Assembly (NCBI RefSeq): GCF_002945325.1
Contig: NZ_CP026606.1
Coordinates: 210,001 to 242,000, forward strand
Length of the DNA: 32,000 bases
Direction of reading: 5' to 3'
Source of the DNA: Methanococcus maripaludis
GTDB lineage: Archaea > AGJL01 > Methanococci > Methanococcales > Methanococcaceae
This document shows positions 563-19,928 of this stretch, piece by piece. A program made the translations under genes and the position numbers. The notes beneath the pieces were generated by a model. It saw only the letters and a list, made by a program, of their open reading frames with translations, was not told where the DNA came from and made no database searches. Numbering within the stretch: position 1 is the stretch's first letter; the number at the start of each line of letters is the position of its first letter.

Positions 563-624
563 AAAGAAAGCGCAGAGGGAGGGATTTGAACCCCCGCTCC
601 CCAGTGGAGAACCGGATTTCAAGT
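563..624 (-). repeat. attL: displaced copy of the tRNA-Ser 3' portion (anticodon loop to 3' end plus 8 nt downstream)
   Basis: aaagaaagcgcagagggagggatttgaacccccgctccccagtggagaaccggatttcaagt aligns to 18493-18554 with 6 mismatches. Similarity stops exactly at the anticodon-stem/loop junction. Confidence 0.9.
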
Positions 625-1474: not shown

Positions 1475-1604
1475 AATTTTATCTTTTTTTTTAATTAATA
1501 TATAAATATAATTGATTTTGATTAGATTACACGAAAAACTTATATATAATTATGACTATGATTAATTTACACGAAATTAGAAAAAACAATTGGAGTTGAT
1601 TATT
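1475..1604. promoter_or_regulatory. divergent promoter/operator region between regulator and integrase
   Basis: TATA-like tracts are present in both orientations (1498-1512, 1539-1551). The direct repeat GATTA(GA/AT)TTACACGAAA occurs at 1520-1537 and 1560-1577, with the exact 10-mer TTACACGAAA spaced 40 bp apart. Confidence 0.5.
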
Positions 1605-2603
1605 ATGGACGATTTTGATCTCGATGAACTGAACAACTTAAAGGACTCGAAAAAATTAAAAAAAGTAAACAATGAAGAAGATTTTAAAAAACAAATGGAT
1701 TTTTATAAAAATGAACGGATAAGAATGGGTATTAAGGAATATACAATCAAACAAGACTGTTACCGAGTTAATTTTTTCTTCAAATGGTTAAAAGAAATGG
1801 GTTTTACTCAAAATAACCTTAACATAACGACTTTTGAATTATTTTTCGATTATATGAGGAAGAAAAGAAAAATCTCAAACAATACACAAAATAAAATCAT
1901 GATTTCCTTAAAAAAATATTTCGAAATAATTAACAATCCTTGTATGGACGAGTTTTTGAAAAAATATGAGAGGTCATTTTACAAAGCTGTTGAGAAAAAA
2001 GAAACCGATTTCATCGAACCAAGCGATGTGAAAATCATGTGTGATTATTTTGAAGAGAAAAAAGAAAAATCAGCTTTTCGATGCTTAGTTTTTCTAAGGG
2101 TGCTTTTTGAAACAGCTGGAAGATTTGGAGAAGTGTTGAAAATTAGAATTAGGGATATAGACTTTGAAAAAGGGATTATTCTCTTAAGAGAAACAAAAAC
2201 GAGCATTCCAAGAAAAGTAGCAGTGTCAAAAGAAGCTAAAGATGGGGAGATTGACACATTAACATATTTAAAATTCTTTTCAAAGGGAAAAAGCGGTGAT
2301 GATTGCCTTTTTCCTTCGGAAGATGATGTTAAAAAACCAATGTCAAAAAACGCTTTCTATCGGCATTATGTGAAGGCGGTTCGATACTTGAAAGATCAAA
2401 ACCCAAAATTGAAAAATAAACACATCACGGTACACACATTACGACACTCCAGAATTGTTGATCTTCTAAGACAGAAACACGAGATAGTTCTCGTGAAAGA
2501 ATACGCCGGACACGAGAACATTGAAACAACTATGATTTATGCTCACGCCTTACAGCGTATGAACGAAACTCTACCCATGTTTCAAGAAAATATCTACAAA
2601 TAA
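1605..2603 (+). CDS. tyrosine recombinase / integrase (intact, not split by integration)
   Basis: The ORF track starts at TTG 1590. ATG 1605 with GGAG upstream is preferred. Catalytic signature visible: ETAGRFGEV (Arg I), HTLRHSRI (H-x-x-R box II), ETTMIYAH (Tyr nucleophile). Confidence 0.9.
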   Translation: MDDFDLDELNNLKDSKKLKKVNNEEDFKKQMDFYKNERIRMGIKEYTIKQDCYRVNFFFKWLKEMGFTQNNLNITTFELFFDYMRKKRKISNNTQNKIMISLKKYFEIINNPCMDEFLKKYERSFYKAVEKKETDFIEPSDVKIMCDYFEEKKEKSAFRCLVFLRVLFETAGRFGEVLKIRIRDIDFEKGIILLRETKTSIPRKVAVSKEAKDGEIDTLTYLKFFSKGKSGDDCLFPSEDDVKKPMSKNAFYRHYVKAVRYLKDQNPKLKNKHITVHTLRHSRIVDLLRQKHEIVLVKEYAGHENIETTMIYAHALQRMNETLPMFQENIYK

Positions 2604-2822: not shown

Positions 2823-3035
2823 ATGAACGAAGTTTTTAAAAATAACGAATTATATTCGTCAAAAGAAGTGTGTGAAACATTAAAAATTAGTATAAGAACC
2901 TTACGAAATTGGACTAAATTCGGAAAAATTGAATATCTTGAATTTAATGGAATTCATCGATTTCTTGGAAAAAATTTGAATGAAATTGCTGTAAAAAGAA
3001 ACTGTTTTATCAAAAACGGTGAGGTAGATGATTAA
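2823..3035 (+). CDS. excisionase/MerR-like helix-turn-helix DNA-binding protein
   Basis: The track starts at GTG 2793. ATG 2823 follows AGGTG. YSSKEVCETLKISIRTLRNWTKFGKIEYLEFNGIHRFLGKNL fits the Xis-type HTH pattern (L-x-x-x-E-x-x-x-x-L-x-h-S-x-x-T-h-x-x-W ... G-x-x-x-h). Its stop overlaps the start of the replication gene. Confidence 0.6.
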   Translation: MNEVFKNNELYSSKEVCETLKISIRTLRNWTKFGKIEYLEFNGIHRFLGKNLNEIAVKRNCFIKNGEVDD

Positions 3036-5544
3036 TGTACAATCAGAAACCTCAAAAATGGAAAATAAAAACAGTAATATATTTACATATACTAATATAA
3101 ATAATTTACGGTTAAATTTCCTAAAAAAACTTTTTCAAAAGCAGTTTGAAGAAATTGATGGAGAAAAATACTTCGAAATTCGTTTGTTGAATCAAAATGG
3201 AAAACCAAAGTTTTTCAAAGTTGAAAATTTAGAAGATTTTGAAAATATTGATTTTGAAGAATTTAAAAAAGAAAATGAAAGTTACAATATTTATTTTTCT
3301 CAAAATTTGAGAAAAAAAGAAAGTGGAAAGGCTGAAAATACCTATGACTGTTACTCGTATGTGGTTTTGGACTTCGATTTCAATTTAAAGGAAAAAAATA
3401 ATAATAAAGCTTTAGAATTTTGTAAAAATAAATACAAATCGATAAAAAAAGAATTGGGAATGGTTCCTTCGTTTTCTGTATTCACTGGACACGGACTTCA
3501 TTTATATTTTACTTTAGAAAAAAATACAAATTTTGAAAATATTAAAAAAATAAAAAATATTGTTGAAAATTTAAAAAATCCAAATTTAAAAGGAATTGAT
3601 AGTAAGGTGTATTCTCCAAGTCAGATATTGAGATTACCGTACTTTAATAACATTAAAAATCCAAAAGAAGTTAAAAAATCGATAATTTTAGAAGAAAATG
3701 ATATTGAATATGATTTTGAAGAATTAAAAGAAAATTTGGAAAAATTAACTCCAAAAACTTCTAAAAAAGAATTTAAAACTATTGAAACACAAGAAAAAGA
3801 AATTAAAAGAGATATTTTCTTTGAAACTTTTCTAAAAAATGAAGAATTAAAAAAAGAAATTGCAGAAAAAGACGGAATTCAAAAGAATGATATTTTATTT
3901 AAAAACTTGGCGTTTTATGTTAAGAATTTTCTTGATTTAGAAGAACTTGCTTATGAATTCGTTGAAGAATGTGGACATTCAACAAAAGAATTTGAGGGAT
4001 GGCTCAGAAAAGACTCAAAAGAAGTAAATTATAGAGAAATTAGAAATTGGGTTGATTATCACCACATTAGTGAATTGAAAAATCTAATAGAAAAACAATT
4101 GAAAGATAAATGTGAATTTTTTGATAATTATAGTATTGCTTATGTTTACGGTCGAAAAAATGATTTCAGATACTTAGTTTTTGATGAAAAAACTAAAACA
4201 GGGGCATCACATAAGAAAAACCAATTAGTTGATTTTTTCAAGGGCGAATCTACTAAATTGGGATATAAATTAGTTGATTTATTAAACATCCCCCAAATTA
4301 ATGAAGAAAATGATAAACCGTACACTAAATCGCAATTAAATAGAATGATCTTTGATAAACTTGAAGAAAAATTTGAAGATGAGAATTTCTTGACAAATGT
4401 CTATGATGAAGGCTATGAACCTTCCGATAAACGTTTTTTCGAGTATCTTGGAAACAAATACATTAATACTTACCGAGCAGGAAAATTTGAAAATTATTTT
4501 GAACCAAAAGAAAAATATAATTTTAAATATATTGAAAAATTATTAAGACATATTACTGGTGATGATGATGATTGTTATAAATATTTTAATAAATGGTTAT
4601 CATATATTTTAAAAAATCCTACTGATAAATTACCAACATCTTTGATTTTTAAAGGAACGCAAGGTATTGGGAAAGGTCGTTTAAGGGAATGGATTTTAAA
4701 TAATATTTTTGGAGAACAAAATATAGATCAGATTGAAGAAGATATGATAAATAATAAATGGGGCGATTACGTCAAAAATAATAGATTTGTGATCGTAAAT
4801 GAAATAAAAATCGATAAAAATGATAAAAAATCATCTAAAAAAATTAAAACTTATTCTACAGATAAAGATATCTCGATACAGCAGAAAAATAAACCTTTAG
4901 AGAAAATTAAAAATTATTCACATTGGATTTTCTTTTCAGATCAAGATAACCCCATGAATTTAGAAAAAAAAGATAGAAGACACACAGTTTTCAATCAAGA
5001 CGATAAGATACCATATGAAATTGTTGAAAAACTCTCACCAGAGCGAAATAAAGGATATTTGGAACAAGAATTGAAAGAATACGTTTCTTATTTGAGAACT
5101 TTGAATCCTACTCATATGGAAGTGTCTAATCCGATGATGACTAAAGCGAAAAAAGATCTATTTAAAGAAAATGAAAAAGAAATCTTTGAAGCAATTAATT
5201 ATGATATTTTCAATTTATGCGGAAAAACAATTGATTCCCTTGCTAATGCGTTAAAAAAACGAGAAAAAAATATAATAGAATATATCGTTGGAAAATTGAA
5301 TAATAATGGTTTATATTTAAGAGAAAAAAATTATAAAATTGAATTGTGGATCACAAAAGAAGGATTGGGAAAGTTGGATAACTTCACCAAATTGGAACAG
5401 ATTAATGAAAGAAATTCACTTTCAAAAATTGCGAAAAGACAAGATTATAAATATAGCACAATCCGTTCTAAGGATGATGTAATACCCTTTGAAAATCCAA
5501 AAAAAGCTATGGAAATTGAAATTTGGGATTTTCAGAATTCCTAA
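3028..5544 (+). CDS. replication protein: N-terminal primase-polymerase (AEP/PrimPol) fused to a D5/P4-type SF3 helicase
   Basis: AEP motifs: VVLDFDF (DxD), TGHGLHLYF (sxH), ILRLPYFNN. C-terminal region: IFKGTQGIGKGR (Walker A-like), RFVIVNEI (Walker B-like), KKDRRHTVF. SD GGTGAGGTAG lies directly upstream of ATG 3028. Confidence 0.8.
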   Translation: MINVQSETSKMENKNSNIFTYTNINNLRLNFLKKLFQKQFEEIDGEKYFEIRLLNQNGKPKFFKVENLEDFENIDFEEFKKENESYNIYFSQNLRKKESGKAENTYDCYSYVVLDFDFNLKEKNNNKALEFCKNKYKSIKKELGMVPSFSVFTGHGLHLYFTLEKNTNFENIKKIKNIVENLKNPNLKGIDSKVYSPSQILRLPYFNNIKNPKEVKKSIILEENDIEYDFEELKENLEKLTPKTSKKEFKTIETQEKEIKRDIFFETFLKNEELKKEIAEKDGIQKNDILFKNLAFYVKNFLDLEELAYEFVEECGHSTKEFEGWLRKDSKEVNYREIRNWVDYHHISELKNLIEKQLKDKCEFFDNYSIAYVYGRKNDFRYLVFDEKTKTGASHKKNQLVDFFKGESTKLGYKLVDLLNIPQINEENDKPYTKSQLNRMIFDKLEEKFEDENFLTNVYDEGYEPSDKRFFEYLGNKYINTYRAGKFENYFEPKEKYNFKYIEKLLRHITGDDDDCYKYFNKWLSYILKNPTDKLPTSLIFKGTQGIGKGRLREWILNNIFGEQNIDQIEEDMINNKWGDYVKNNRFVIVNEIKIDKNDKKSSKKIKTYSTDKDISIQQKNKPLEKIKNYSHWIFFSDQDNPMNLEKKDRRHTVFNQDDKIPYEIVEKLSPERNKGYLEQELKEYVSYLRTLNPTHMEVSNPMMTKAKKDLFKENEKEIFEAINYDIFNLCGKTIDSLANALKKREKNIIEYIVGKLNNNGLYLREKNYKIELWITKEGLGKLDNFTKLEQINERNSLSKIAKRQDYKYSTIRSKDDVIPFENPKKAMEIEIWDFQNS

Positions 5545-5580
5545 ATATACTTTTTTATTTTTTTTATATCGATTATTGAT

Positions 5581-6083
5581 TTGTAACCAGTTTTTTACGG
5601 GCTTAGAATGGTTATTTTCTAAAATGAAAGAATATCTTATCATTATTCTTTTTTCCAATATTTTGTAACCGGTTTGTAACCAGTTTTTGTTACATTTGTA
5701 ACCACTTTTTTGAGAACGTAGAGTGGTTATTTTTTAATTTAAAGACCATTTATTTATTTTAATTTTTTGTAACTAAAAATATATAATAAATTGATATTAA
5801 AAAAAATTAAATGTGAAAATACAAAATTGAATTATAAAATATATTTTTTAAAAAAAAAGTAATTTTCCCACTTTTTTGGTTACAAATTTTTTAAATCCCT
5901 AATCTTCCTTAGAATGGACTATACTCTTTAGAATGAACCCCTTTTTGTAACCATTTTTTGGTTACAAAATGGTTACAAAATGGTTACAAAAATTATAAAT
6001 TTTTTTAAATCCCTAATCTTCCTTAGAATGAACTTTACTCCTTAGAATGAACTCTTTTTTGTAACCATAATTTTGGTTACAAA
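5581..6083. repeat. iteron field (TTGTAACC / GGTTACAA) with two ~85-bp direct repeat units; candidate replication origin
   Basis: The 8-mer or a close variant occurs at 5581, 5663, 5674, 5697, 5767 (variant), 5878, 5945, 5960, 5971, 5982, 6059 and 6075. Repeat units at about 5885-5967 and 5998-6083 both read aatttttt(t)aaatccctaatcttccttagaatg...cttagaatgaac...tttttgtaacca...ttttggttacaaa. Confidence 0.75.
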
Positions 6084-6090
6084 TTTTAAT

Positions 6091-6239
6091 CGTGTCACGT
6101 TTTTATTTTTCTCCCCTTTCCCCCTCAAAATCAATAATTATAATAATATATAATAGTATTACAAAATTTAATTAAAAGAGTAAATATTAATATTATTAAT
6201 AACAATATTAATAATATAAAATCACGGATCCGTGTTTTT
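6091..6239. other. near-pure A/T tract (about 6128-6221) bracketed by two short GC hairpins, each followed by TTTTTATTTTTCT; candidate DNA-unwinding element
   Basis: cgtgtcacg+tttttatttttct at 6091-6112 and cacggatccgtg+tttttatttttct at 6223-6247. The sequence between them is almost entirely A/T (aatattaatattattaataacaatattaataatataaaat). Confidence 0.45.
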
Positions 6240-6287
6240 ATTTTTCTATAATTGTTCTTTCCACGAGAGGAAGAACAGGTGGTGGTA

Positions 6288-7340: not shown

Positions 7341-7539
7341 TAAATTTTATTTTTTTTTAGAAAAATATATTTATTAATTTAAATTTATAAAATAATACCA
7401 TTCTTTTTTCAATTTATATATATAAGATTATTTATTCATACATATATTAATAATAGTAATACTTATATATTATTAAGACTATATATATTTTCATTGATTT
7501 TTATGGAAAAAATGTTTTAATAAAAATGGTGAGGTGGAA

Positions 7540-8217: not shown

Positions 8218-8577
8218 ATGGTTAATGAAACGTTAACAATTATTAATAATACAAGAATAGCGACTTTGGATCCGCGTTTTCTCTCGGATCCTAATATCGC
8301 ACATCTAATAACTTATTTAATGACACAATTCCCCGAAATCCCTTCAATTATCTTATTTGGTGCTGGGATTTCGTGTTATATTGCAACAGGCGAAGATGAA
8401 ATGAAGACATTAATATTAGAATTTCTAATGATGTTTGTTTTTATATCAATCTTGGAAATTCCGCTTGATGTGATGGCGAGTACTCCAACGGCTTTGACGT
8501 TATTTGGGTTGAATTCGATATTTATAATTTTCATATTTGCGAAATTCTTGTTCTGTTTCACTGATACAGAACAATAA
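8218..8577 (+). CDS. integral membrane protein (about 3 TM)
   Basis: ATG follows GGTGGTGATAG. Hydrophobic segments: IPSIILFGAGISCYIA, LILEFLMMFVFISILEI and LFGLNSIFIIFIFAKFLFCF. Confidence 0.6.
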   Translation: MVNETLTIINNTRIATLDPRFLSDPNIAHLITYLMTQFPEIPSIILFGAGISCYIATGEDEMKTLILEFLMMFVFISILEIPLDVMASTPTALTLFGLNSIFIIFIFAKFLFCFTDTEQ

Positions 8578-8625: not shown

Positions 8626-11600
8626 ATGGCAATTAGAAGTGGAGAAACACATTATGATAGTGATGGAAATGCTTATAGAGTTAGTGGAAGTACAGCGACA
8701 AAAATTGGTGATTCTTCCGGTGCAAAATATAAAACTTCATCAATTAACGTGAAGGCAGGAAGTAATGGAAGTTCTTCAAAATCAAATTCAAGTTCTTCAA
8801 ATTCTACATCGATAGAATCCATAAAAAAAGATTTGGCAAGTGGAAAGCGTTCAACTGGTGCAAATTCAAACGTTGCAACGGCAAACGGAAAAGTTTTTCA
8901 AAATTTAAAAAATAAATATGGTCTTGATAAAGCGAAAGAACTCTACAATTCATATAAGAGAAATATTCTAACGGCAAAACAAGAATTAGAGAACGAGCAA
9001 AACGCAAAAATCCAAAAGGTAATTGAAAAAAGATATTCAAAAATTGGAACAAGCGGAAAAAATTACAAATCATCAATAAACGAAGTAATTCTTGATAAAG
9101 AAGGAAATATTGTCGCACTTAGAAACAAGAAATCCGGTCAAATTGTGGCAGGATCCGGTGTCGCTTACGGTGGACAAGCAGAAAAGAATTATAAAAAATG
9201 GGGATTATCAAAGCAATTAGATAATGCCATTGATAATGTCAACAATAAAAGAGAAAATCAATATAATCAAGATTTGAAGTTTACAAATTCGATAACAATT
9301 ACCCCATCAATGCACCAAATAGAAAAGGACGGAAAACTCTACATCTATGATCATAATGAAGATGGAACGTTTTCAACTTATATTATCAATAAAAATCAAT
9401 CAAGATACAATAATGGAACCATAGAGTTTACAGATAACGCTATTCTCGAAAACGCAGGAGAATATCAAAAAGATTACACGAAATTAAATGATATTCTTAA
9501 TGAGAGGTACACATCGGGAAACGAGTACACCGGAAGGATTTCCTTATTTGATATCGCAAAAGAACAGGGTGTATCACTTCAAATTGACCAACAAGGGGAT
9601 AAAACAGTTTTGTATGATTCCACAGGAACGATTTATGGAATTTACAATTCTGATGATATAGAAATTAAAGGATTGAATATTTACACCAAAAACGATGATT
9701 ATATTTATTCTTCTTCTAAATTAGAAACCGAAGGATTTGTAAATCCAGTAACTAAGGAAGAAATGAAATATTATGTAAATAATAAAGGAGAAAAACTAAT
9801 AATTAATAAAAAAGATGAAAATACTTACAAATATCAAGACGATATGGAACCAGTTGAGAAATTAAAACAATTAGAAATGGATATAATCTCAAACCCCAAA
9901 GAAACCATCAAAAGAGGAGTTTCATATTTGGGGGATAAATTCAATATAAATTCAAAATACACCGATGTTGCAAATAAGGGAGTCAATTATCTTAATGTTT
10001 TTGGAACGGAAGATGTTGGACAGATTGAAGGAAAAATAAGAAATATTGATACAAAAGATACGGTAACCACGAGAGGATTAAATACAGTTGGTGGAATAGC
10101 CGTTGGTCTAACTGATTTAACTGTTGGTACTGGTTACGCGATCTATAAGGATTCAAAAAATAATAGAAAAAATAATGTGGTTTTAACCCAAAAAGATCGA
10201 TATTTGGGAAATGCAGGAAGTTCTATTCTCTCAACACATGGAAAAACTATGGCGGTTGGGATGGTTCAGCCAGTGAAAAATCTAATTGTCGATAGGGATT
10301 TTTCTATTGAAAATACTCTTGGAACCGCTTTACTTGTTGCACCCGTTCTCAAAGGTGCTGGAAAGGTGGGAAAATCCGCAATTGCAAAATCCCCAAAACC
10401 AGTATTTGAAATTGCAATTGGAAAAAACATTGCAGGAAAGACAAATTATTTCGGTGTCAAAACCGGAGTTAAAACAAGTTCAAAAATTAAAATAAATACG
10501 TTAGAAGTAGGAACAAAATCAAAAACAGGATTTAACCAGTTGGCAAAAGAAAATATCAAAGTTGATAAAAATTCAATAAGTTTTGACGATGGAATTAAAT
10601 CCGATTTGGTTATAAAATCCACAAAAGAGAGAACGGTTAAAACTAATGATAAAATAACCAATGTGAAAAATGTAGTGGATACCGAAGGAAACAAATTATC
10701 CAAAAAAGTAGATATTTCAAAAACCAATGAAGGTTATAAAATCGTTGGAAATGTAGCAAAAAATGATAAATTCATCAATTATAATGTAGAAACAGGAAAG
10801 AACTTTATAAATCGAGATTTTTATAATTCTAACAAATATGGAACGAGATATAATTTCAATAATGTTAAAATATTGAAAGATAAATCAAAACTTTATGAAA
10901 AATCCGATTTGAATTCAAATAAGCATATAGATTTGAAAAAAATTAAAAATAAAGAATATATGAAAGAGAATTATCAAGAAGTTAAATTTGAAGAAAATAA
11001 AAACATCAAAGGAGATTTCTCCCATAATAAAAACTCAAATTTGTATTTAGAGAATTTGAGTGGGAAGAAAATCGTTGTTAGGGGGAATAAGGGATTTATC
11101 AAAAACGGAAAATCAAAATCTATAAATAATATAATCCAAATGGGTGAGAAATATCACCTCAATGAAATAACGGGAACAAAATATGGTGCATTTAAGAAAT
11201 TAACAAGAAATAATAAAGTTTATCAACAAAAAAAGACCGTTAAAAGTGACAATCATTTAAATATAAATGATATTAGAAATAATAAAATAAAACCAGTTGG
11301 AGAAATTGAAATCACCGAGTTTGGAACCAATGAAGGATTGAAAGGAAACAATATAATAAATCTTGGTGAAAATACCGGATACGTTTCTGAAATTCAAATA
11401 AATGGTGTTGGATTGTCAAAACACAATTTCAATACTCCAATGAAGAAAAACGGTTTTATTAAAAGAGATGGATTCAAGAAAACAAATCAGAAAATCTATG
11501 AATGGAAAGAAAACGGTCAAGGAACGAAGATAATAAATGAAGAAATAATTCAAAATAGAAATTTTGCATTGAAATCACAGAAAAGAAATTCAAATACAAT

Positions 11601-12324
11601 TAAATTCAATATTAAAAATCAAATTATCGAAAAAGAAGTTTCAAAAAGTCCAAAAGCACCAAAAACAAGTTTAAATAAAACATTTAAAGAAACTAAACCG
11701 ATTTCAAAATCAAAACAAACAATACAAGTTTCAAAAACAAATAAAAATAAAATAAATACAAAAATTACAACTAAAACAAAAACAAGAACTCCAACGCTTA
11801 TTAAAAGTAAAAAGAACATCAAATCAATTAATAATAATTTAAAAATCAAAAATCCGATGAAAAAATTAAATCCAAAAGGAAAAAAAATTAAAAATCCAAA
11901 TAACTTGAAATACCCAATCGGTATGGGAACAATGGGAATTGGTGTCAACTTAGGGTTGAATTCAAAAAATAGACAAAAGAATTTGGCAAAACCATTCTTA
12001 AATACAAAAGCAAATAATTTAAGAAAACAAAAGGTTTCAGATATTCAAAGAATGAAAGTGGGAACAACTTCCCCACAAATCCAAAGATTGAAAACTGATA
12101 CCATTCAGATTTCAGATATTGGAAGTTTGGGTGGTGTATTGATTGATAGAATCGATCCGGTCGATGTTCCAATTATTAAATCAATTTCAAGAAGTGACAC
12201 AAATCCAATTTCCACAAAAGGAAATTCAAAAAGAAAAAATAATAAAATTAGAAAAACTCAAAAAGAAATTAAAAATATTAAAAAATGGAATATCGGTGGA
12301 TTTGGATCCGCGTTTTTGAAATAA
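8626..12324 (+). CDS. 1232-aa structural/adhesion or DNA-transfer protein (function unknown) with a central Gly/hydrophobic region and a very Lys-rich C-terminal third
   Basis: ATG follows GGTGGTGATAA. No obvious signal peptide. The hydrophobic/Gly-rich stretch TRGLNTVGGIAVGLTDLTVGTGYAIY ... GTALLVAPVLKGAGKVGKS is encoded at about 10072-10396. The K/N/T-rich low-complexity region is encoded at about 11630-11915. Confidence 0.7.
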   Translation: MAIRSGETHYDSDGNAYRVSGSTATKIGDSSGAKYKTSSINVKAGSNGSSSKSNSSSSNSTSIESIKKDLASGKRSTGANSNVATANGKVFQNLKNKYGLDKAKELYNSYKRNILTAKQELENEQNAKIQKVIEKRYSKIGTSGKNYKSSINEVILDKEGNIVALRNKKSGQIVAGSGVAYGGQAEKNYKKWGLSKQLDNAIDNVNNKRENQYNQDLKFTNSITITPSMHQIEKDGKLYIYDHNEDGTFSTYIINKNQSRYNNGTIEFTDNAILENAGEYQKDYTKLNDILNERYTSGNEYTGRISLFDIAKEQGVSLQIDQQGDKTVLYDSTGTIYGIYNSDDIEIKGLNIYTKNDDYIYSSSKLETEGFVNPVTKEEMKYYVNNKGEKLIINKKDENTYKYQDDMEPVEKLKQLEMDIISNPKETIKRGVSYLGDKFNINSKYTDVANKGVNYLNVFGTEDVGQIEGKIRNIDTKDTVTTRGLNTVGGIAVGLTDLTVGTGYAIYKDSKNNRKNNVVLTQKDRYLGNAGSSILSTHGKTMAVGMVQPVKNLIVDRDFSIENTLGTALLVAPVLKGAGKVGKSAIAKSPKPVFEIAIGKNIAGKTNYFGVKTGVKTSSKIKINTLEVGTKSKTGFNQLAKENIKVDKNSISFDDGIKSDLVIKSTKERTVKTNDKITNVKNVVDTEGNKLSKKVDISKTNEGYKIVGNVAKNDKFINYNVETGKNFINRDFYNSNKYGTRYNFNNVKILKDKSKLYEKSDLNSNKHIDLKKIKNKEYMKENYQEVKFEENKNIKGDFSHNKNSNLYLENLSGKKIVVRGNKGFIKNGKSKSINNIIQMGEKYHLNEITGTKYGAFKKLTRNNKVYQQKKTVKSDNHLNINDIRNNKIKPVGEIEITEFGTNEGLKGNNIINLGENTGYVSEIQINGVGLSKHNFNTPMKKNGFIKRDGFKKTNQKIYEWKENGQGTKIINEEIIQNRNFALKSQKRNSNTIKFNIKNQIIEKEVSKSPKAPKTSLNKTFKETKPISKSKQTIQVSKTNKNKINTKITTKTKTRTPTLIKSKKNIKSINNNLKIKNPMKKLNPKGKKIKNPNNLKYPIGMGTMGIGVNLGLNSKNRQKNLAKPFLNTKANNLRKQKVSDIQRMKVGTTSPQIQRLKTDTIQISDIGSLGGVLIDRIDPVDVPIIKSISRSDTNPISTKGNSKRKNNKIRKTQKEIKNIKKWNIGGFGSAFLK

Positions 12325-12872: not shown

Positions 12873-13181
12873 GTGTTTATCAATTATGAATTGTACAATG
12901 TACGTCAGATAGCAGATAGATTTAATTTAACTCCACAGGCAATTTATTATTGGATTAGATGTGGAAAATTACACTATTCAAAAAAGAATAATCGATATTC
13001 CGTGTTGGGTTATTCGATAAATCAGATAATACGAGAAAAAAATTGGAAAAAAAGAAATCAAGAATTTAAGAAAAATAAAAAATTTAAAATAAAAAATAAT
13101 TTTCAAAAAAATAATTTAAAAATCGAAAGAACTTCTTATCATTTAAAAACGTTGCAAAGGGCAACAGGTGGTGAGAATTAG
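12873..13181 (+). CDS. excisionase/MerR-like HTH protein with basic C-terminal tail (paralogue 3)
   Basis: GTG start follows GGTGGTGATAA. HTH-like segment: LYNVRQIADRFNLTPQAIYYWIRCGKLHYSKKNNRYSVLGYSINQII, followed by a K/N-rich tail. Confidence 0.55.
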   Translation: MFINYELYNVRQIADRFNLTPQAIYYWIRCGKLHYSKKNNRYSVLGYSINQIIREKNWKKRNQEFKKNKKFKIKNNFQKNNLKIERTSYHLKTLQRATGGEN

Positions 13182-14189: not shown

Positions 14190-14355
14190 TTAACGGAATG
14201 AATAGTGAGGACATAGGGACATAAGTCCTTAAATGATGGAAATATTGAATATTCCGCGAGTACTATTATATAGAGTCTATAATCATTGATGGAAAAAGTG
14301 GAAATAATGGAAAAATTTGATAAAATGTGGATTTAATTCTTCACAGGTGGTGATA

Positions 14356-15390
14356 TTGCTAAGAAAAAATGAATATGATTACTGGGGCTTGGGTGCTATT
14401 GTAAAGTCCCTCGCATTTTCTAAATTAAGAAATAATTTCGATTTCCACATTGCCGTTACCGGAATCGAAGGATCTGGAAAGTCCGCACTTGCAATCGCTC
14501 TTGCTCGATTTATGGATCGGAGTTTCAATCAAAACATGAATGAAAGAATGTATTTTTCAAATGAAGCACTTCCAGATTACTTGGATTTATTAAATGAGAA
14601 CGTTGAGAAAATTGAAAACGGTTTTGAGGGTGGAACGACCGTTATTTTTGACGAAACTCAAAATATTTTCAACAGGAGAAATGCACCTACTAAGGAAAAT
14701 AAAGCATTGCTCGAAGTAATCAGAACTCAAAGAATGGCAAAAATGTGTTGCATATATGCTACACCTAACGTTTTAGAATTAGAGAATTTTTTATCCAATA
14801 GAATGGATGTAATCCTTTTTTGTTCTTCCGATAAGAAAAAGGTCTATGGAGTCACGGATACAATCACTTATGATGGAAAAGTCTACAATGGATCAAAAAA
14901 TCTTCTTTTCCAAGAGATGAAAAATCTCGATCCTCGAACATTAAAGATGTCACCGGAGAACATCATGGCTCTGTGTATGGACGGAAAATTCAGATTTGAT
15001 TTCGGGGGAAAAACGGTCTATGATGATTATATATATAATAAATACTCGTTTATTAAAGCAAAGAAAACATCAGAATTCTTCAATAATACAAAGGAAAAAA
15101 TCAATAAAAATAAACCTATAAGGGAAGAAGAAAAGGAAAGTAAATATCAAATGCTTAATTTATCAATCAAGAAATTGACTGAACTGGAAAATGATTATAT
15201 TCCCCAACATTTAGAAAAAATTGAAGATGAAATGTTTGAAGACGATTTCATCAGTCAAAAAGCAATTGCCAATTGGTTAGACGTTGGAGATGGGGCAGTT
15301 TCAAAGAAGATTGATAGAAAGAAAATTGAAAAAGTTGCTTATCAAGGAAAAAAATATATTAAGGTCAAATATTTGAGGGATTTAATTTAA
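14356..15390 (+). CDS. P-loop NTPase (Zot/pI-like or packaging-type ATPase candidate) with C-terminal Xis-like HTH
   Basis: The track starts at TTG 14317. The in-frame TTG 14356 directly follows GGTGGTGATA. Walker A: AVTGIEGSGKSALA. Walker B: TTVIFDETQ, followed by IRTQRMAKMCCIYATPN. The C-terminus ISQKAIANWLDVGDGAVSKKIDRKKIEKVAYQGKKYIKV resembles the three HTH paralogues. Confidence 0.7.
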   Translation: MLRKNEYDYWGLGAIVKSLAFSKLRNNFDFHIAVTGIEGSGKSALAIALARFMDRSFNQNMNERMYFSNEALPDYLDLLNENVEKIENGFEGGTTVIFDETQNIFNRRNAPTKENKALLEVIRTQRMAKMCCIYATPNVLELENFLSNRMDVILFCSSDKKKVYGVTDTITYDGKVYNGSKNLLFQEMKNLDPRTLKMSPENIMALCMDGKFRFDFGGKTVYDDYIYNKYSFIKAKKTSEFFNNTKEKINKNKPIREEEKESKYQMLNLSIKKLTELENDYIPQHLEKIEDEMFEDDFISQKAIANWLDVGDGAVSKKIDRKKIEKVAYQGKKYIKVKYLRDLI

Positions 15391-15431: not shown

Positions 15432-15842
15432 TTGGAGAATTATATTAAAGTTTTTGAAAATGAGAAAATTTATTCATCTAAAGAAATAAAAAATAAAGTT
15501 TTTTTTCAAGGAAAAATTTTTATTTACGGCAAAAAGGGACAGATTTCAATTGAGAAAAAACACATTTTTAAAATTAATTTTTTAAATTTCTATTGGGGGG
15601 AACATTTAAATTTTTTATTTAACGCATATTTAACTAATATATACCGGAAAAGGAAAAATAAGGAAAAATTATTAAAGGATTTTAATATAAAAAATTATAA
15701 TATCTCTAAAAAAAATTTAAATGATGAAGATTTTGAAGAATTTAAAAAAATGTATTCTGAAAATTTAAAATATATGGAAGAAAATGGAAATTTGGAAAAA
15801 ATAAAATTAGTGGGAAAAGAAGAAAAATTGAACGGAGTTTGA
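15432..15842 (+). CDS. hypothetical Lys-rich protein
   Basis: TTG start follows GGTGGTGATAG. 136 aa. No recognisable motif. Confidence 0.4.
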   Translation: MENYIKVFENEKIYSSKEIKNKVFFQGKIFIYGKKGQISIEKKHIFKINFLNFYWGEHLNFLFNAYLTNIYRKRKNKEKLLKDFNIKNYNISKKNLNDEDFEEFKKMYSENLKYMEENGNLEKIKLVGKEEKLNGV

Positions 15843-15853
15843 GAAATAATTAA

Positions 15854-15881
15854 TTTTTTTCAAAATAACTTTTTTTAAAAT
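15854..15881 (+). repeat. left copy of the 28-bp direct repeat bracketing the three-gene cassette
   Basis: tttttttcaaaataactttttttaaaat matches 18257-18284 (tttttttcgaaataactttttttaaaat) at 27/28 positions. Confidence 0.8.
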
Positions 15882-15961
15882 GGTAAACAGGGGGGATATT
15901 ACCCAAAATTATATATGTTTTAAAAATATACAATAGTCAAATTGAGGGATATTTTTTTAGG

Positions 15962-16942
15962 ATGGGGAACATGGAAAAACAGGTTTTTTTAAATGATACT
16001 TACAATGCCTTTTTAGAGGTATTTAATACCCAAGAACAGAAGTATGTATCGAATACAACACGATTAATGAAACTTTTTATATGTACTGCGGAAGAACTGG
16101 GTAAATTAGATAATGACAAACCCATTGCTTATGGTTGGTATAACCACGGTTTGTTTTGTTTTGAATTATATAACGACATGAATTCAATTAATGAATTTAG
16201 AAAAACTATGGATGTTAATAATAATTTAAATTCTGAAAAATATGAATTAATAAAATCTATACTTAAGCGATTAAAACCTCATTTTTTAAACAATACAATT
16301 AAGTTTGATAAATATATTCATGAAGAATTACCCGATAAAGAAACAAAAAAATATTATCGTGCAGTTAATGAAATGGAATGTGGTTTTGAACGTATTCAAA
16401 ATGAAAATTCCGGTTTAGGACAATATGTTGGAGAACATGAATCAAAAAATCTTCAAAAATGTATAGGAAAACTTGAAAAAGATGTTATTATTGAATATAA
16501 TGCAGAAAAAAGAAATGATGTATTTTGGGAATATACTGATTCATTATACATAACTCTTGATAACTATGAAAATGGAGAACAAAATTTAAAAAGTACCATA
16601 AAAAATATGGGAACCATATTTACTGAAAATTTATTAAGTATAATTTCCCCATACCCTGAAACACTTTCGGGACATCCTGAACTGTTAAAAATAGAATTAA
16701 AAAAGTATGATGAAAGTTTAAAAAATAATTTTTCGAAATTTCGAATGTTTTTTAGATTTACAAAAAGTTCTAATTTTTTAAAATATGATAATTTATTAAA
16801 AGAAATCAATAATGCTGAATTTACTGAAAAAACATATAAACTTATTAATGAACATATATATCCAGAAAATTCAACAAGATTAAGGAAAGAACACGAATTT
16901 AAATCATCAAACATGAATTTAGAGTATGGGGGGGAGAAATAG
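15962..16942 (+). CDS. cassette gene 1: unknown 326-aa protein; N-terminal segment weakly resembles the SocA/Panacea (DUF4065) antitoxin pattern
   Basis: TRLMKLFICTAEELGKLDNDKPIAYGWYNHGLFCFELY compares with the Panacea-like pattern KLxKLLY...g.pl....f.aW.yGPv.pelY. The stop TAG shares its G with the GTG start of the next gene. Confidence 0.55.
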   Translation: MGNMEKQVFLNDTYNAFLEVFNTQEQKYVSNTTRLMKLFICTAEELGKLDNDKPIAYGWYNHGLFCFELYNDMNSINEFRKTMDVNNNLNSEKYELIKSILKRLKPHFLNNTIKFDKYIHEELPDKETKKYYRAVNEMECGFERIQNENSGLGQYVGEHESKNLQKCIGKLEKDVIIEYNAEKRNDVFWEYTDSLYITLDNYENGEQNLKSTIKNMGTIFTENLLSIISPYPETLSGHPELLKIELKKYDESLKNNFSKFRMFFRFTKSSNFLKYDNLLKEINNAEFTEKTYKLINEHIYPENSTRLRKEHEFKSSNMNLEYGGEK

Positions 16943-17466
16943 TGGATATATTTTTAGATAGTTGTATAATTTTTGGAAAACATATACCTAAGAATCCTCA
17001 TAATGATAATGTTAATAAATTTTATTGTTCCAACAATATTTTATCACAAACGAGCTGTGATGCAGTCAAGGATGAAGTTAATTATAAATTAAAAAAGGTT
17101 ATAATTGAAGCATATGGTGATGATGTATCAGAATTACTTTTTAGGGAAATAAGACTAGCAATCAATCATTTTTTTAAAAAAATTAATATGGTAAATTATC
17201 AAAATCATACAAATTATGATTTTATTTTTTTATATGATGAATTAGAAGACTACTTCAAAAAATTGATTACGAAAAATACTGCTGATAAAGATATATTTTC
17301 TAACGTGATAGTGTGGGGAGTAGATAAAACATTAAATAATCCCAACTTTATTACCACGGATAAAAGAGATTATACAAATAAATTTGATATAATAATTACT
17401 TCCAACAAATGCCTCAGTGCAAATAATTATCCCAATACTCCGATTAAAATTCAGATATTAAAATAA
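16942..17466 (+). CDS. cassette gene 2: PIN-like domain nuclease (toxin-like)
   Basis: GTG follows GGGGGGGAG. The acidic quartet sits in PIN-typical contexts: MDIFLDSCIIF (D6 after beta-1), AVKDEV (E45), TADKDIFSNVIVW (D115/D117), FITTDKRDY (D140). Confidence 0.55.
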   Translation: MDIFLDSCIIFGKHIPKNPHNDNVNKFYCSNNILSQTSCDAVKDEVNYKLKKVIIEAYGDDVSELLFREIRLAINHFFKKINMVNYQNHTNYDFIFLYDELEDYFKKLITKNTADKDIFSNVIVWGVDKTLNNPNFITTDKRDYTNKFDIIITSNKCLSANNYPNTPIKIQILK

Positions 17467-17489
17467 ATTTTAGTTTTGAGGGGAGCATA

Positions 17490-18200
17490 TTGGATGAAAA
17501 TGTAAAAAGATTGGAAAATGTAGTTGAAAAAAACATAGACTATCTATATCGTGATTTGGAGTATACTACTACAAAATATAATTACTATGACACAAAAATA
17601 TCAAACAATTGTAATCTAATCTTAAAAATTTATGCACTTGTTTATGGTTTAATTATTACTGCTTATGGGATTGTTGATAATATTGAATTATCTTTATGGA
17701 TATTAGCAATTGCTAATATATTTGTTTTAAATTTTGCATTAGGAATATTTAAATTTGGAAGGGTATTATGTATTCTCGGAATAGATGTAGATGTTATATT
17801 GGTAAACATAAACATGTCTTCAAAAAAAGTTTGGAATTATACTGGTGATTTATTAATTGAGTTCAATAATTCGTTATATACGTTAGTTTTTTTCGTAACT
17901 AATTTTTCAATCTATTTGCTTATTATTGCACTGATCATAAGCACCGTTTATTTAATCGCTTTTTCAGATACCTACATTTCATTAATATTATCTGATTTGA
18001 GTGAATTTTTAAAATTTTTATGTTATGGGTTAATTTGGATTTTTAATATTTATAGCATAATTGAAATAAATAAATCAAAACAAAAATATGACATACAATT
18101 AAAAAAATCCAGAATAAAAGCCGAAAAATTTTCAGAAGTTTTTGATAAAATAAGGGATGTATTACATAATCAAGAACCTGATCGAGATGAAATTGATTGA
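17490..18200 (+). CDS. cassette gene 3: multi-pass membrane protein with soluble N-terminal helix and charged C-terminal tail
   Basis: TTG follows GAGGGGAG, and there is no in-frame ATG nearby. TM candidates: LILKIYALVYGLIITAYGIV, LSLWILAIANIFVLNFALGIF, LYTLVFFVTNFSIYLLIIALIISTVYLIAF, FLKFLCYGLIWIFNIYSII. Confidence 0.55.
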   Translation: MDENVKRLENVVEKNIDYLYRDLEYTTTKYNYYDTKISNNCNLILKIYALVYGLIITAYGIVDNIELSLWILAIANIFVLNFALGIFKFGRVLCILGIDVDVILVNINMSSKKVWNYTGDLLIEFNNSLYTLVFFVTNFSIYLLIIALIISTVYLIAFSDTYISLILSDLSEFLKFLCYGLIWIFNIYSIIEINKSKQKYDIQLKKSRIKAEKFSEVFDKIRDVLHNQEPDRDEID

Positions 18201-18256
18201 ATATAAAAAGATCAGCATTAATGAAAATAATAACTTAAAATATTTTATTATAAATA

Positions 18257-18284
18257 TTTTTTTCGAAATAACTTTTTTTAAAAT
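18257..18284 (+). repeat. right copy of the 28-bp direct repeat bracketing the three-gene cassette
   Basis: See 15854-15881. Confidence 0.8.
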
Positions 18285-18492
18285 ATTTTTCTGGAAACCG
18301 GATTTAAAATTAATTTCATTTATATACTAAATGTCTTTTTTTGGGTGTCCGGACTGTAATCCGGTGTCCATTTGGTACACTTTTAATCCAAAAACAAAAA
18401 ACAACGATAAAAAACACTTGAAATTTAAAATACTCGAAAAAAACCCTACCGGATTAAAAAAAAACCTTCAAAAAAGCCGTAGATTTGAATTT

Positions 18493-18554
18493 AAAGAAAG
18501 CGCAGAGGAGGGGATTCGAACCCCCGCTTCCCAGTGGGAAACCGGATTTCAAGT
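18493..18554 (-). repeat. attR: repeat copy forming the 3' portion of the intact tRNA-Ser
   Basis: aaagaaagcgcagaggaggggattcgaacccccgcttcccagtgggaaaccggatttcaagt aligns with 563-624. Confidence 0.9.
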
Positions 18555-18587
18555 CCGGCGCCTTTGGCCAAGCTCAACCACCTCTGC
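18501..18587 (-). tRNA. tRNA-Ser (anticodon UGA), class II with long variable arm, no encoded CCA
   Basis: The reverse complement folds by hand: acceptor GCAGAGG/CCTCTGC; 3-bp D stem; anticodon stem CCGGA/TCCGG with loop CTTGAAA (anticodon TGA); variable arm TTCCC-ACT-GGGAA; T arm GGGGG-TTCGAAT-CCCCT; discriminator G. Confidence 0.9.
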
Positions 18588-19852: not shown

Positions 19853-19928
19853 ATAATCCAAACTAACTAAAATAAAAATAAAAAATAAAATACAAAATTT
19901 CTTTTTTTAAAATTTAAAAAAAATTAAT

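Follow-up and report, generated by a model that had tools for sequence, protein, structure and literature searches.

A 17.9-kb tyrosine-integrase element is integrated in the tRNA-Ser(UGA) gene of Methanococcus maripaludis JJ (DSM 2067, CP026606), and the window analysed here, a stretch of 32,000 nucleotides (nt), contains this element together with DNA on both sides of it. The element is bounded by a 62-nt direct repeat, the two copies of which (90% identical) mark its attachment (att) sites. At its tRNA-proximal end, three co-oriented genes (g1, g2, and g3) are enclosed by two copies of a further direct repeat of 28 nt (hereafter, the 28-mer), and this cassette and its boundaries are the subject of the present analysis (coordinates are listed in Table 1). 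A sequence-only reading of the same DNA had drawn attention to the repeat pair and offered two readings of it, namely that a module was inserted or swapped at a terminator-like sequence that became duplicated, or that such sequences recombine with each other at a cargo hot spot.

Repeat pair and predicted transcription signals

Both 28-mers were found with exactly the coordinates and sequences that had been given for them. They were identical at 27 of 28 positions, the sole mismatch being at position 9 (A in the left and G in the right copy), and the identity gained one further base leftward (29 nt, starting from 15853 and 18256, respectively). When 230 nt around each copy were aligned, the similarity was confined to 28-29 nt, with sharp edges on both sides. 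The left copy begins 11 nt past the stop codon of gene 15432-15842, and the right copy begins 56 nt past the g3 stop codon and ends 208 nt before the att core (18493), both in accordance with the earlier description. The repeat had also been described as unique in the window, and no third copy was detected on either strand at up to 3 mismatches, nor was an inverted copy present. The 28-mer contains an internal half-repeat (T7-C-AAAAT and T7-AAAAT).

Such a pair was not reproduced by randomisation. None of 100 shuffled sequences contained two matches to the 28-mer. In a window-wide test that was independent of the noted pattern, 28-nt direct repeats with at most one mismatch occurred at three loci (the 28-mer pair, an origin-like repeat at 5884/5998, and an internal duplication of uvrA), and fifth-order Markov simulations yielded such repeats in 0 of 200 cases. 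Outside the window, the 28-mer had no match in IMG/VR, no copy at up to 6 mismatches in six loci (~110 kb) of other M. maripaludis strains, and a sole match among 185,579 species genomes, which was a chance match to a 24-nt core in one metagenome-assembled genome of Bdellovibrionales. In the collections covered, the 28-mer is not a common genomic sequence; a terminator common throughout the genome would have spoken against the sequence-only reading.

A more distant relative of the 28-mer (21 of 28 positions) is located outside the element at 19886-19913 and shares CAAAAT and CTTTTTTTAAAAT with it. This sequence is a host terminator in the convergent gap between a gene with a GTP_EFTU_D2 domain and an aspartate dehydrogenase gene, and it is kept in other strains (L002:10820-10847). 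The 13-mer CTTTTTTTAAAAT is unremarkable by itself, with 6 matches at up to one mismatch against 3.15 expected.

On the coding strand, both 28-mers have the form T7-N9-T7, i.e., two runs of seven T separated by nine bases. Transcripts of M. maripaludis have their 3′ ends at U-tracts; termination is most efficient, and the termination factor aCPSF1 binds most strongly, where at least two U4-tracts are present, and two U-tracts are the minimum for efficient aCPSF1 binding (PMC8716108). Both copies agree with these published terminators (PMC8716108) in having two or more U4-tracts in a stretch of ~25-30 nt where a unit ends. Tandem T6-T9 runs were likewise present after the unit-ending stop codons at 2603, 5544, 7340, and 12324, the 28-mers holding the corresponding place after 15842 and 18200; no such runs followed the stop codons of operon-internal genes, which have the next gene close behind. 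RNA around either 28-mer folded no better than shuffled sequences (z = -0.4 and -0.5), and this lack of a hairpin fits hairpin-independent archaeal terminators and counts against a folded recombination site. From their T-runs and their position at unit ends, the 28-mers are very probably terminators, and the terminator-like nature attributed to them by the sequence-only reading was thus supported. The other terminators of the element have the same architecture and a different sequence, so the architecture does not explain why 13 of the 14 positions outside the T-runs match; the two copies therefore either share an origin or are held identical by something else.

The left edge of the cassette coincides with the predicted terminator of the preceding unit, the last gene of which (15432-15842) has a GGTGGTGAT ribosome-binding site and no TATA box of its own. 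Downstream of this edge, a TATA-like TTATATAT lies 62 nt upstream of the g1 ATG, a spacing comparable to that of the TATA boxes before the integrase gene, 7014, 7534, and the host gene 18914, and no TATA motif was found upstream of g2, g3, or other operon-internal genes. At the motif level, therefore, the cassette has its own candidate promoter directly upstream. For g1, a start at 15971 is likelier than one at 15962, because the exact 323-residue product is on record and homologs align from there. The GTG start codon of g2 overlaps the g1 stop codon, and g3 begins 23 nt after g2, behind a GAGGGGA ribosome-binding site. With the right 28-mer and its two T7 runs directly downstream as its own predicted terminator, the TATA box and the three co-oriented genes would make up a complete promoter-genes-terminator unit. 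The proteins of the cassette were not found in the supplement of one JJ transcriptome paper.

Two side observations concern the promoter region. The stretch from the predicted transcription start to the g1 ATG, presumably the 5′ leader of this gene, contains a T7 run (15952-15958), a single U-tract that could attenuate expression of the cassette. In addition, a 24-nt TATA-containing sequence, AAAACTTATATATAATTATGACTA, and its variants occur in three copies (1535-1558, 2708-2731, and 7458-7481) that precede the integrase gene, the 2793/3028 unit, and the 7534 unit, respectively, and thus represent a promoter type shared within the element; the cassette promoter has nothing in common with this type beyond the TATA box.

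The DNA between the right 28-mer and the att core is characterised by ACCGGATT, which occurs nine times in the window against 0.74 expected, with seven of the nine sites located within ~250 nt of the att cores. This octamer is also part of the tRNA/att core and clusters near both att ends, including a copy at 733-740. Three sites lie between the right 28-mer and the att core, the first of them beginning 12 nt after the 28-mer. The distribution suggests that ACCGGATT is a candidate arm-type integrase binding site and that 18285-18492 may serve as the integrase arm region, which would place the cassette exactly between the last predicted core terminator and the att arm.

Table 1. Positions of the cassette, its boundaries, and other features of the element in the window
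Feature	Position	Strand	Remarks
Left 28-mer copy	15854-15881	+	TTTTTTTCAAAATAACTTTTTTTAAAAT; predicted two-U-tract terminator of the upstream unit
Candidate archaeal promoter	15902-15916	+	BRE-like (transcription factor B recognition element) CCCAAAA, then TATA box TTATATAT at 15909-15916
g1	15971-16942	+	323-aa (amino acid) all-helical protein AVB75652, partner of the PIN-like protein
g2	16942-17466	+	174-aa PIN-like protein AVB75653
g3	17490-18200	+	236-aa multi-pass membrane protein
Right 28-mer copy	18257-18284	+	TTTTTTTCGAAATAACTTTTTTTAAAAT; predicted terminator of the cassette
Putative att arm region	18285-18492	.	ACCGGATT at 18297-18304 (+), 18358-18365 (-), and 18448-18455 (+)
tRNA-proximal att core	18493-18554	.	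element-supplied; rebuilds the tRNA-Ser 3′ half
tRNA-Ser(UGA), integration target	18500-18587	-	ARAGORN; Rfam tRNA 49.7 bits
Last gene before the cassette	15432-15842	+	136 aa, ends the upstream unit; open reading frame list
AAA/Zot-like ATPase, element core gene	14317-15390	+	Pfam AAA E 3e-06, Zot E 2.6e-04
1232-aa ORFan	8626-12324		
DUF5906 primase-helicase	3028-5544		
Tyrosine integrase	1590-2603	+	Pfam Phage_integrase E 3.5e-26
Distal att repeat	563-624	.	displaced original tRNA-Ser 3′ half; far end of the element

Cassette genes and related modules

The products of g1, g2, and g3 matched no Pfam, NCBIfam, PHROG, or PADLOC model. The g1 protein is all-helical in a low-confidence AlphaFold model (predicted local distance difference test score (pLDDT), 42), and its family is characterised by the conserved motifs AYGWY-HG and LSIISPYPETL-G. 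DUF8098 is the precomputed label of a remote g1 homolog in L019 (residues 21-234, E = 1e-6); the Pfam scan returned no DUF8098 match, even for this labelled protein, and no literature on DUF8098 was found. We also considered whether the N-terminus of g1 might resemble the Panacea/DUF4065 antitoxin domain, and this assignment was dropped because Pfam scans of six family members gave no support.

PIN domains are recognisable by an N-terminal hydrophobic strand ending in D-[ST], followed by a glutamate, an aspartate, and a T-x-D toward the C-terminal side. The g2 family is small, with 9 representatives among 1.84 billion proteins, and an alignment of 11 members (24-49% identity) revealed invariant F4, L5, D6, V42, E45, D115, D140, and D143. 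These residues include the acidic order of a PIN domain (D in strand 1, E, D, and D), with D143 invariant as well. The family scored below the threshold against Pfam PIN (E 0.018) and PIN_4 (E 0.032), and UniRef names the g2 product a PIN domain-containing protein. When the g1 and g2 family alignments were used as profiles against PDB sequences, the output was noise only, with no PIN match, and the single-sequence AlphaFold model of g2 was unusable (pLDDT 36). Taken together, the acidic pattern and the family-level matches indicate that g2 is probably a PIN-like nuclease. The third product, g3, has four to five hydrophobic segments and no relatives in IMG/VR.

Homologs of g1 with 35-46% identity always had a g2 homolog as the next gene. 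The hydrothermal-vent contigs L012-L014 encode homologs of g1 and g2 with 46 and 49% identity, respectively, and L017 encodes homologs with 35 and 42% identity, which adjoin genes for an HsdR_N-type nuclease-domain protein, DUF488, and DUF2080. Remote homologs of both proteins are present on L019 (L019:4447-5943). On L018, a 37-kb IMG/VR contig, a g2 homolog lies near a terminase-sized protein (module L018:6727-8609), and its partner of 425 residues shares only the C-terminal domain with g1 (E 3e-7). The gene following g1-g2 on L012 (L012:2013-2924) encodes a 41% homolog of this L018 partner, so L012 probably carries two modules in tandem. The partner proteins measured 305-425 residues among the homologs seen, with at least two N-terminal types on a shared C-terminal domain.

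In L012, L017, L018, and L019, g3 was absent beside the g1-g2 homologs. A gene for a 236-residue product after the PIN-like gene of L019 was examined as a g3 counterpart and rejected, its product being alike in length and unrelated in sequence. The 28-mer was found at none of the homologous g1-g2 loci, and no flanking repeats surround the modules in L012, L017, and L018. Because the pair recurs without g3 or the 28-mer, g1-g2 can be regarded as a portable two-gene module with a swappable N-terminal domain in the partner, and the differing neighbourhoods of the partner and PIN-like pairs (L012-L014, L017, L018, and L019) indicate that the module moves as a unit. In JJ, the membrane protein g3 is added to this pair. 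Thus, the three open reading frames that the sequence-only reading had grouped as one cassette are all present, and they resolve into a conserved g1-g2 module plus an unrelated g3. As to function, a PIN-type nuclease and its partner would form the heart of the cargo, which probably acts as a toxin-antitoxin-like or defence-like module.

Logan contigs containing g1 and g2 were identical to the window and stopped short of the right 28-mer, and exact-protein look-ups with the products of the 136-residue gene and g3 returned no contig spanning the repeats. Directly 3′ of the g2 homologs, L012 (1745-1860) and L017 (5866-5960) contain several copies of TGTATTC- or TTGTAAT-type motifs, which have no counterpart in the JJ cassette because g3 follows g2 there.

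Carrier element and integration site

The carrier encodes an integrase, its direct att repeat takes in the 3′ half of the tRNA, and relatives have the site unoccupied, all as in tRNA-integrating tyrosine-recombinase elements. In strains L002 and L005, the host flanks are 99.9% identical to the window and the whole 17.9-kb element is absent; the distal att repeat of JJ is identical to the 3′ half of the intact tRNA of these element-free strains. An Rfam scan detected nothing besides the tRNA, and the product of gene 15432-15842 matched no family in Pfam and other family scans. The announcement of the JJ genome makes no mention of the 17.9-kb element.

The tRNA-Ser gene is a known target of the pT26-2 family in Methanococcales (PMC6972569). 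In L002 and L005, a pT26-2-type element follows the tRNA, and positions 6-290 of the window match its first genes. The DNA to the left of the distal att repeat (1-562) is 92-94% identical to the first genes of this element (L002:12238-12800, and L005). As pT26-2-type genes abut the distal att repeat, JJ holds two different elements in tandem at the same tRNA-Ser. The ACCGGATT copy at 393 is probably part of the arm of the neighbouring pT26-2-type element.

Searches for relatives of the 17.9-kb element in 5.8 billion proteins, IMG/VR, PLSDB, and INPHARED found none. Among the 5.8 billion proteins, the AAA/Zot-like ATPase matched only itself; the ATPase, the 1232-residue protein, and the primase-helicase had no relatives in IMG/VR; tblastn gave no match in plasmids; and the cassette DNA had no match in plasmid and phage collections.

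Several further features of the element were observed. A dense repeat region follows the primase-helicase gene (5550-6260) and looks like the replication origin of the element; it comprises two 87-nt repeats (5884/5998, 85% identical), two 44-nt repeats (5579/5694), three tandem TGGTTACAAAA units (~5959-5998), and the palindrome CACGGATCCGTG (6224-6235). A 48-nt repeat, 71% identical between 8233-8280 and 12269-12316, ends in the identical 16-mer TTTGGATCCGCGTTTT and is located at the start of gene 8218-8577 and at the end of the 1232-residue gene, with a related GGATCCG palindrome in the origin-like region. Between the distal att repeat and the integrase gene, an open reading frame encoding 228 residues on the minus strand (788-1474) matched no family and may represent another accessory gene, located at the opposite end of the element from the cassette.

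Origin of the cassette and comparison with known systems

We propose, with moderate confidence, that the cassette is an accessory unit of the moron type, that its two boundaries are copies of one two-U-tract terminator, and that this duplication is a trace of the event that installed it. The left 28-mer would end the last core operon of the element and insulate the cassette from it, and the right 28-mer would end the accessory unit and stop read-through into the att arm and, in antisense, into tRNA-Ser. Expression of the accessory unit in the integrated state would then not depend on the core genes. The two near-identical, sharp-edged terminators would most likely descend from the installing event, for which we envisage two possible routes, namely a single crossover between the resident terminator and a circular or linear donor carrying the cassette with one terminator copy, or a copy-choice event at the T-runs. 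Either route would leave one terminator copy on each side. The insertion offered as one possibility by the sequence-only reading is thus partly supported: the terminator-like boundaries, the rarity of the 28-mer, the autonomous unit beside the att arm, and the portability of g1-g2 all fit it, and composition gives it no support.

The cassette had been described as more AT-rich than the rest of the element. Its GC content (0.242) was indeed lower, by a marginal 0.003, than the lowest value among 43 element chunks of the same size (0.245; median, 0.268). In tetranucleotide distance to the remainder of the element, the cassette (0.033) lay below the chunk median (0.038), and in codon usage it was no farther from the element than the large genes of the element itself. 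The profile of GC content and codon usage, which had been proposed as a check on insertion, thus gave no sign of foreign origin, as tetranucleotides and codons fell within the range of the element.

Several points weigh against the proposed acquisition. Composition and codon usage match those of the element, so the cassette could be old or ancestral, and the compositional difference from neighbouring genes that is looked for in morons was not observed. No relative of the element was found in the collections searched, and hence no version lacking the cassette or bearing another one stands behind the insertion. The promoter and the terminator were both deduced from motifs alone. Homologous recombination would have only a short homology of 28 nt to act on, and the repeat has no recombinase linked to it. 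As regards the cargo, the PIN assignment of g2 combines a conserved acidic pattern with sub-threshold profile matches, and the AlphaFold models of g2 and g1 were both unusable (pLDDT 36 and 42, respectively).

The agreement in composition, together with the lack of any known relative without the cassette, would also be expected if the cassette were ancestral to the element and the second 28-mer had arisen by local duplication or gene conversion of the terminator. We consider this unlikely, because the similarity ends at 28-29 nt, unlike that of a segmental duplication, nothing obvious would drive conversion between 28-nt tracts separated by 2.4 kb, and the g1-g2 module is portable.

The hot-spot reading, in which the 28-mers are active recombination sites and the cassette loops out as a 2,403-bp circle or is exchanged with other elements, much as in integrons or cassette-exchange systems, appears to us just as unlikely. 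Direct, near-identical, and sharp-edged repeats around a complete functional unit would suit such sites, the g1-g2 module is present in several unrelated contexts, and in many integrative elements cargo accumulates at positions adjacent to att. However, the cassette neither contains nor adjoins a recombinase gene; the sole integrase is encoded 13 kb away, and its sites (ACCGGATT and the tRNA core) are unlike the 28-mer. The 28-mers have no inverted-repeat or folded structure of the attC kind, the modules in L012, L017, and L018 have no flanking repeat, and apart from the chance 24-nt core match the 28-mer was seen in no other genome or viral contig. Overall, these data do not show active recombination sites or a hot spot at this end of the element.

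It is less likely still that the 28-mers are a regulatory pair, i.e., DNA sites for an element protein such as a small helix-turn-helix protein, kept identical by selection. The element does encode a helix-turn-helix protein (12873-13181), the copies agree closely not only in the T-runs but also across the nine spacer bases, and the internal half-repeat could be read in the same way. Against this, both copies lie at unit ends in the sense orientation of a terminator and none lies at a promoter, and the two copies are the only ones, are 2.4 kb apart, and have no palindromic symmetry.

A comparably low probability is given to a more far-reaching view, in which conserved U-tract terminators provide portable homology for the exchange of entire transcription units between archaeal mobile elements, the 28-mers are live exchange crossover points, and the cargo is a new three-gene archaeal abortive-infection or addiction system composed of a partner related to the DUF8098-labelled protein, a PIN-like nuclease, and a membrane effector. 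Finally, a coincidence of two independent T-rich terminators is hardly credible: the terminators here are all T-runs, CTTTTTTTAAAAT is not unusual, and the host terminator at 19886-19913 shares 21 of 28 positions, but 13 of the 14 positions outside the T-runs match, none of the 200 simulated windows contained such a repeat, and the other terminators of the element differ in sequence.

If the moron-like reading is correct, the locus would be a clean archaeal example of the moron principle, with an accessory unit insulated from its surroundings and placed between the last core operon and att, and with the terminator as the mark of the junction. JJ is the type strain of a genetically tractable methanogen, and promoter, terminator, and cargo function are therefore directly testable. 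The cargo defines a small, unannotated pair of a partner gene and a PIN-like gene, also found in methanogen-like vent metagenomes and one viral contig, and this pair is a candidate toxin-antitoxin or defence module. The main practical value thus lies in a testable two- or three-gene PIN-like module in a tractable methanogen. Current concepts are left unchanged, the observation being sound and its interpretation reasonable but half-proven.

Among known systems, the 28-mers themselves resemble the two-U-tract, aCPSF1-assisted terminators of M. maripaludis (PMC8716108; PMC7515710), with two runs of at least U4 within ~25 nt, located directly after the last gene of a unit, and no hairpin needed. 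They differ in that the published set is from strain S2 and a near-identical pair flanking a unit is not known as a feature of such terminators, and in that the 28-mers are known from sequence alone. The carrier shares a tyrosine integrase, the tRNA-Ser target, a long att site, and a conserved core with an ORFan-rich variable region with the pT26-2 family (PMC6972569). It differs from this family in having no match to a T26-6p-like protein or other pT26-2 hallmark, so that it is not recognisable as one of its members, and its ATPase and large protein have no detectable relatives.

Two kinds of mobile unit were considered and rejected. Integron cassettes are also discrete gene units with short related boundary sequences near an integrase-bearing platform; however, no IntI is adjacent (the integrase is ~13 kb away and uses a tRNA att site), the repeats are direct and unstructured, and the cassette has its own predicted promoter. 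A transposon with a target-site duplication was rejected since no transposase family was found among g1-g3, no inverted repeats occur at the inner edges of the 28-mers, and a duplication of 28 nt is atypically long.

The g1-g2 pair resembles PIN toxin-antitoxin (VapBC) or PIN defence modules in having two overlapping genes with D-E-D-D in the downstream one, mobile carriers, and scattered contexts. Unlike in VapBC, the g1 partner is large (305-425 residues in the family) and has a swappable N-terminal domain, rather than being a small DNA-binding antitoxin. It further differs from PIN toxin-antitoxin and defence modules in that no PIN, toxin-antitoxin, or PADLOC model was matched significantly and a membrane protein belongs to the same predicted unit. 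A type II pair of the VapBC kind was consequently rejected, as the 323-residue partner matched no DNA-binding or antitoxin family and only the overlap and gene order fit.

In function and anatomy, the closest systems are phage morons and the variable regions of archaeal integrated plasmids. Morons were reportedly described by Juhala, Hendrix and colleagues as accessory transcription units of lambdoid phages such as HK97 and HK022. Like the JJ cassette, they comprise one gene or a few, equipped with a separate promoter and terminator and located at a genome end or among core genes; they can be expressed while integrated, and the core life cycle does not require them. The JJ cassette differs in its archaeal host, its TATA/BRE and U-tract signals, a carrier that is not demonstrably a virus, and the absence of the typical compositional contrast. 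Its membership among morons is incomplete because this contrast is missing and only the absence of the whole element was seen (L002 and L005). Overall, the arrangement looks like an ordinary scar of moron-type cargo acquisition rather than a new kind of system.

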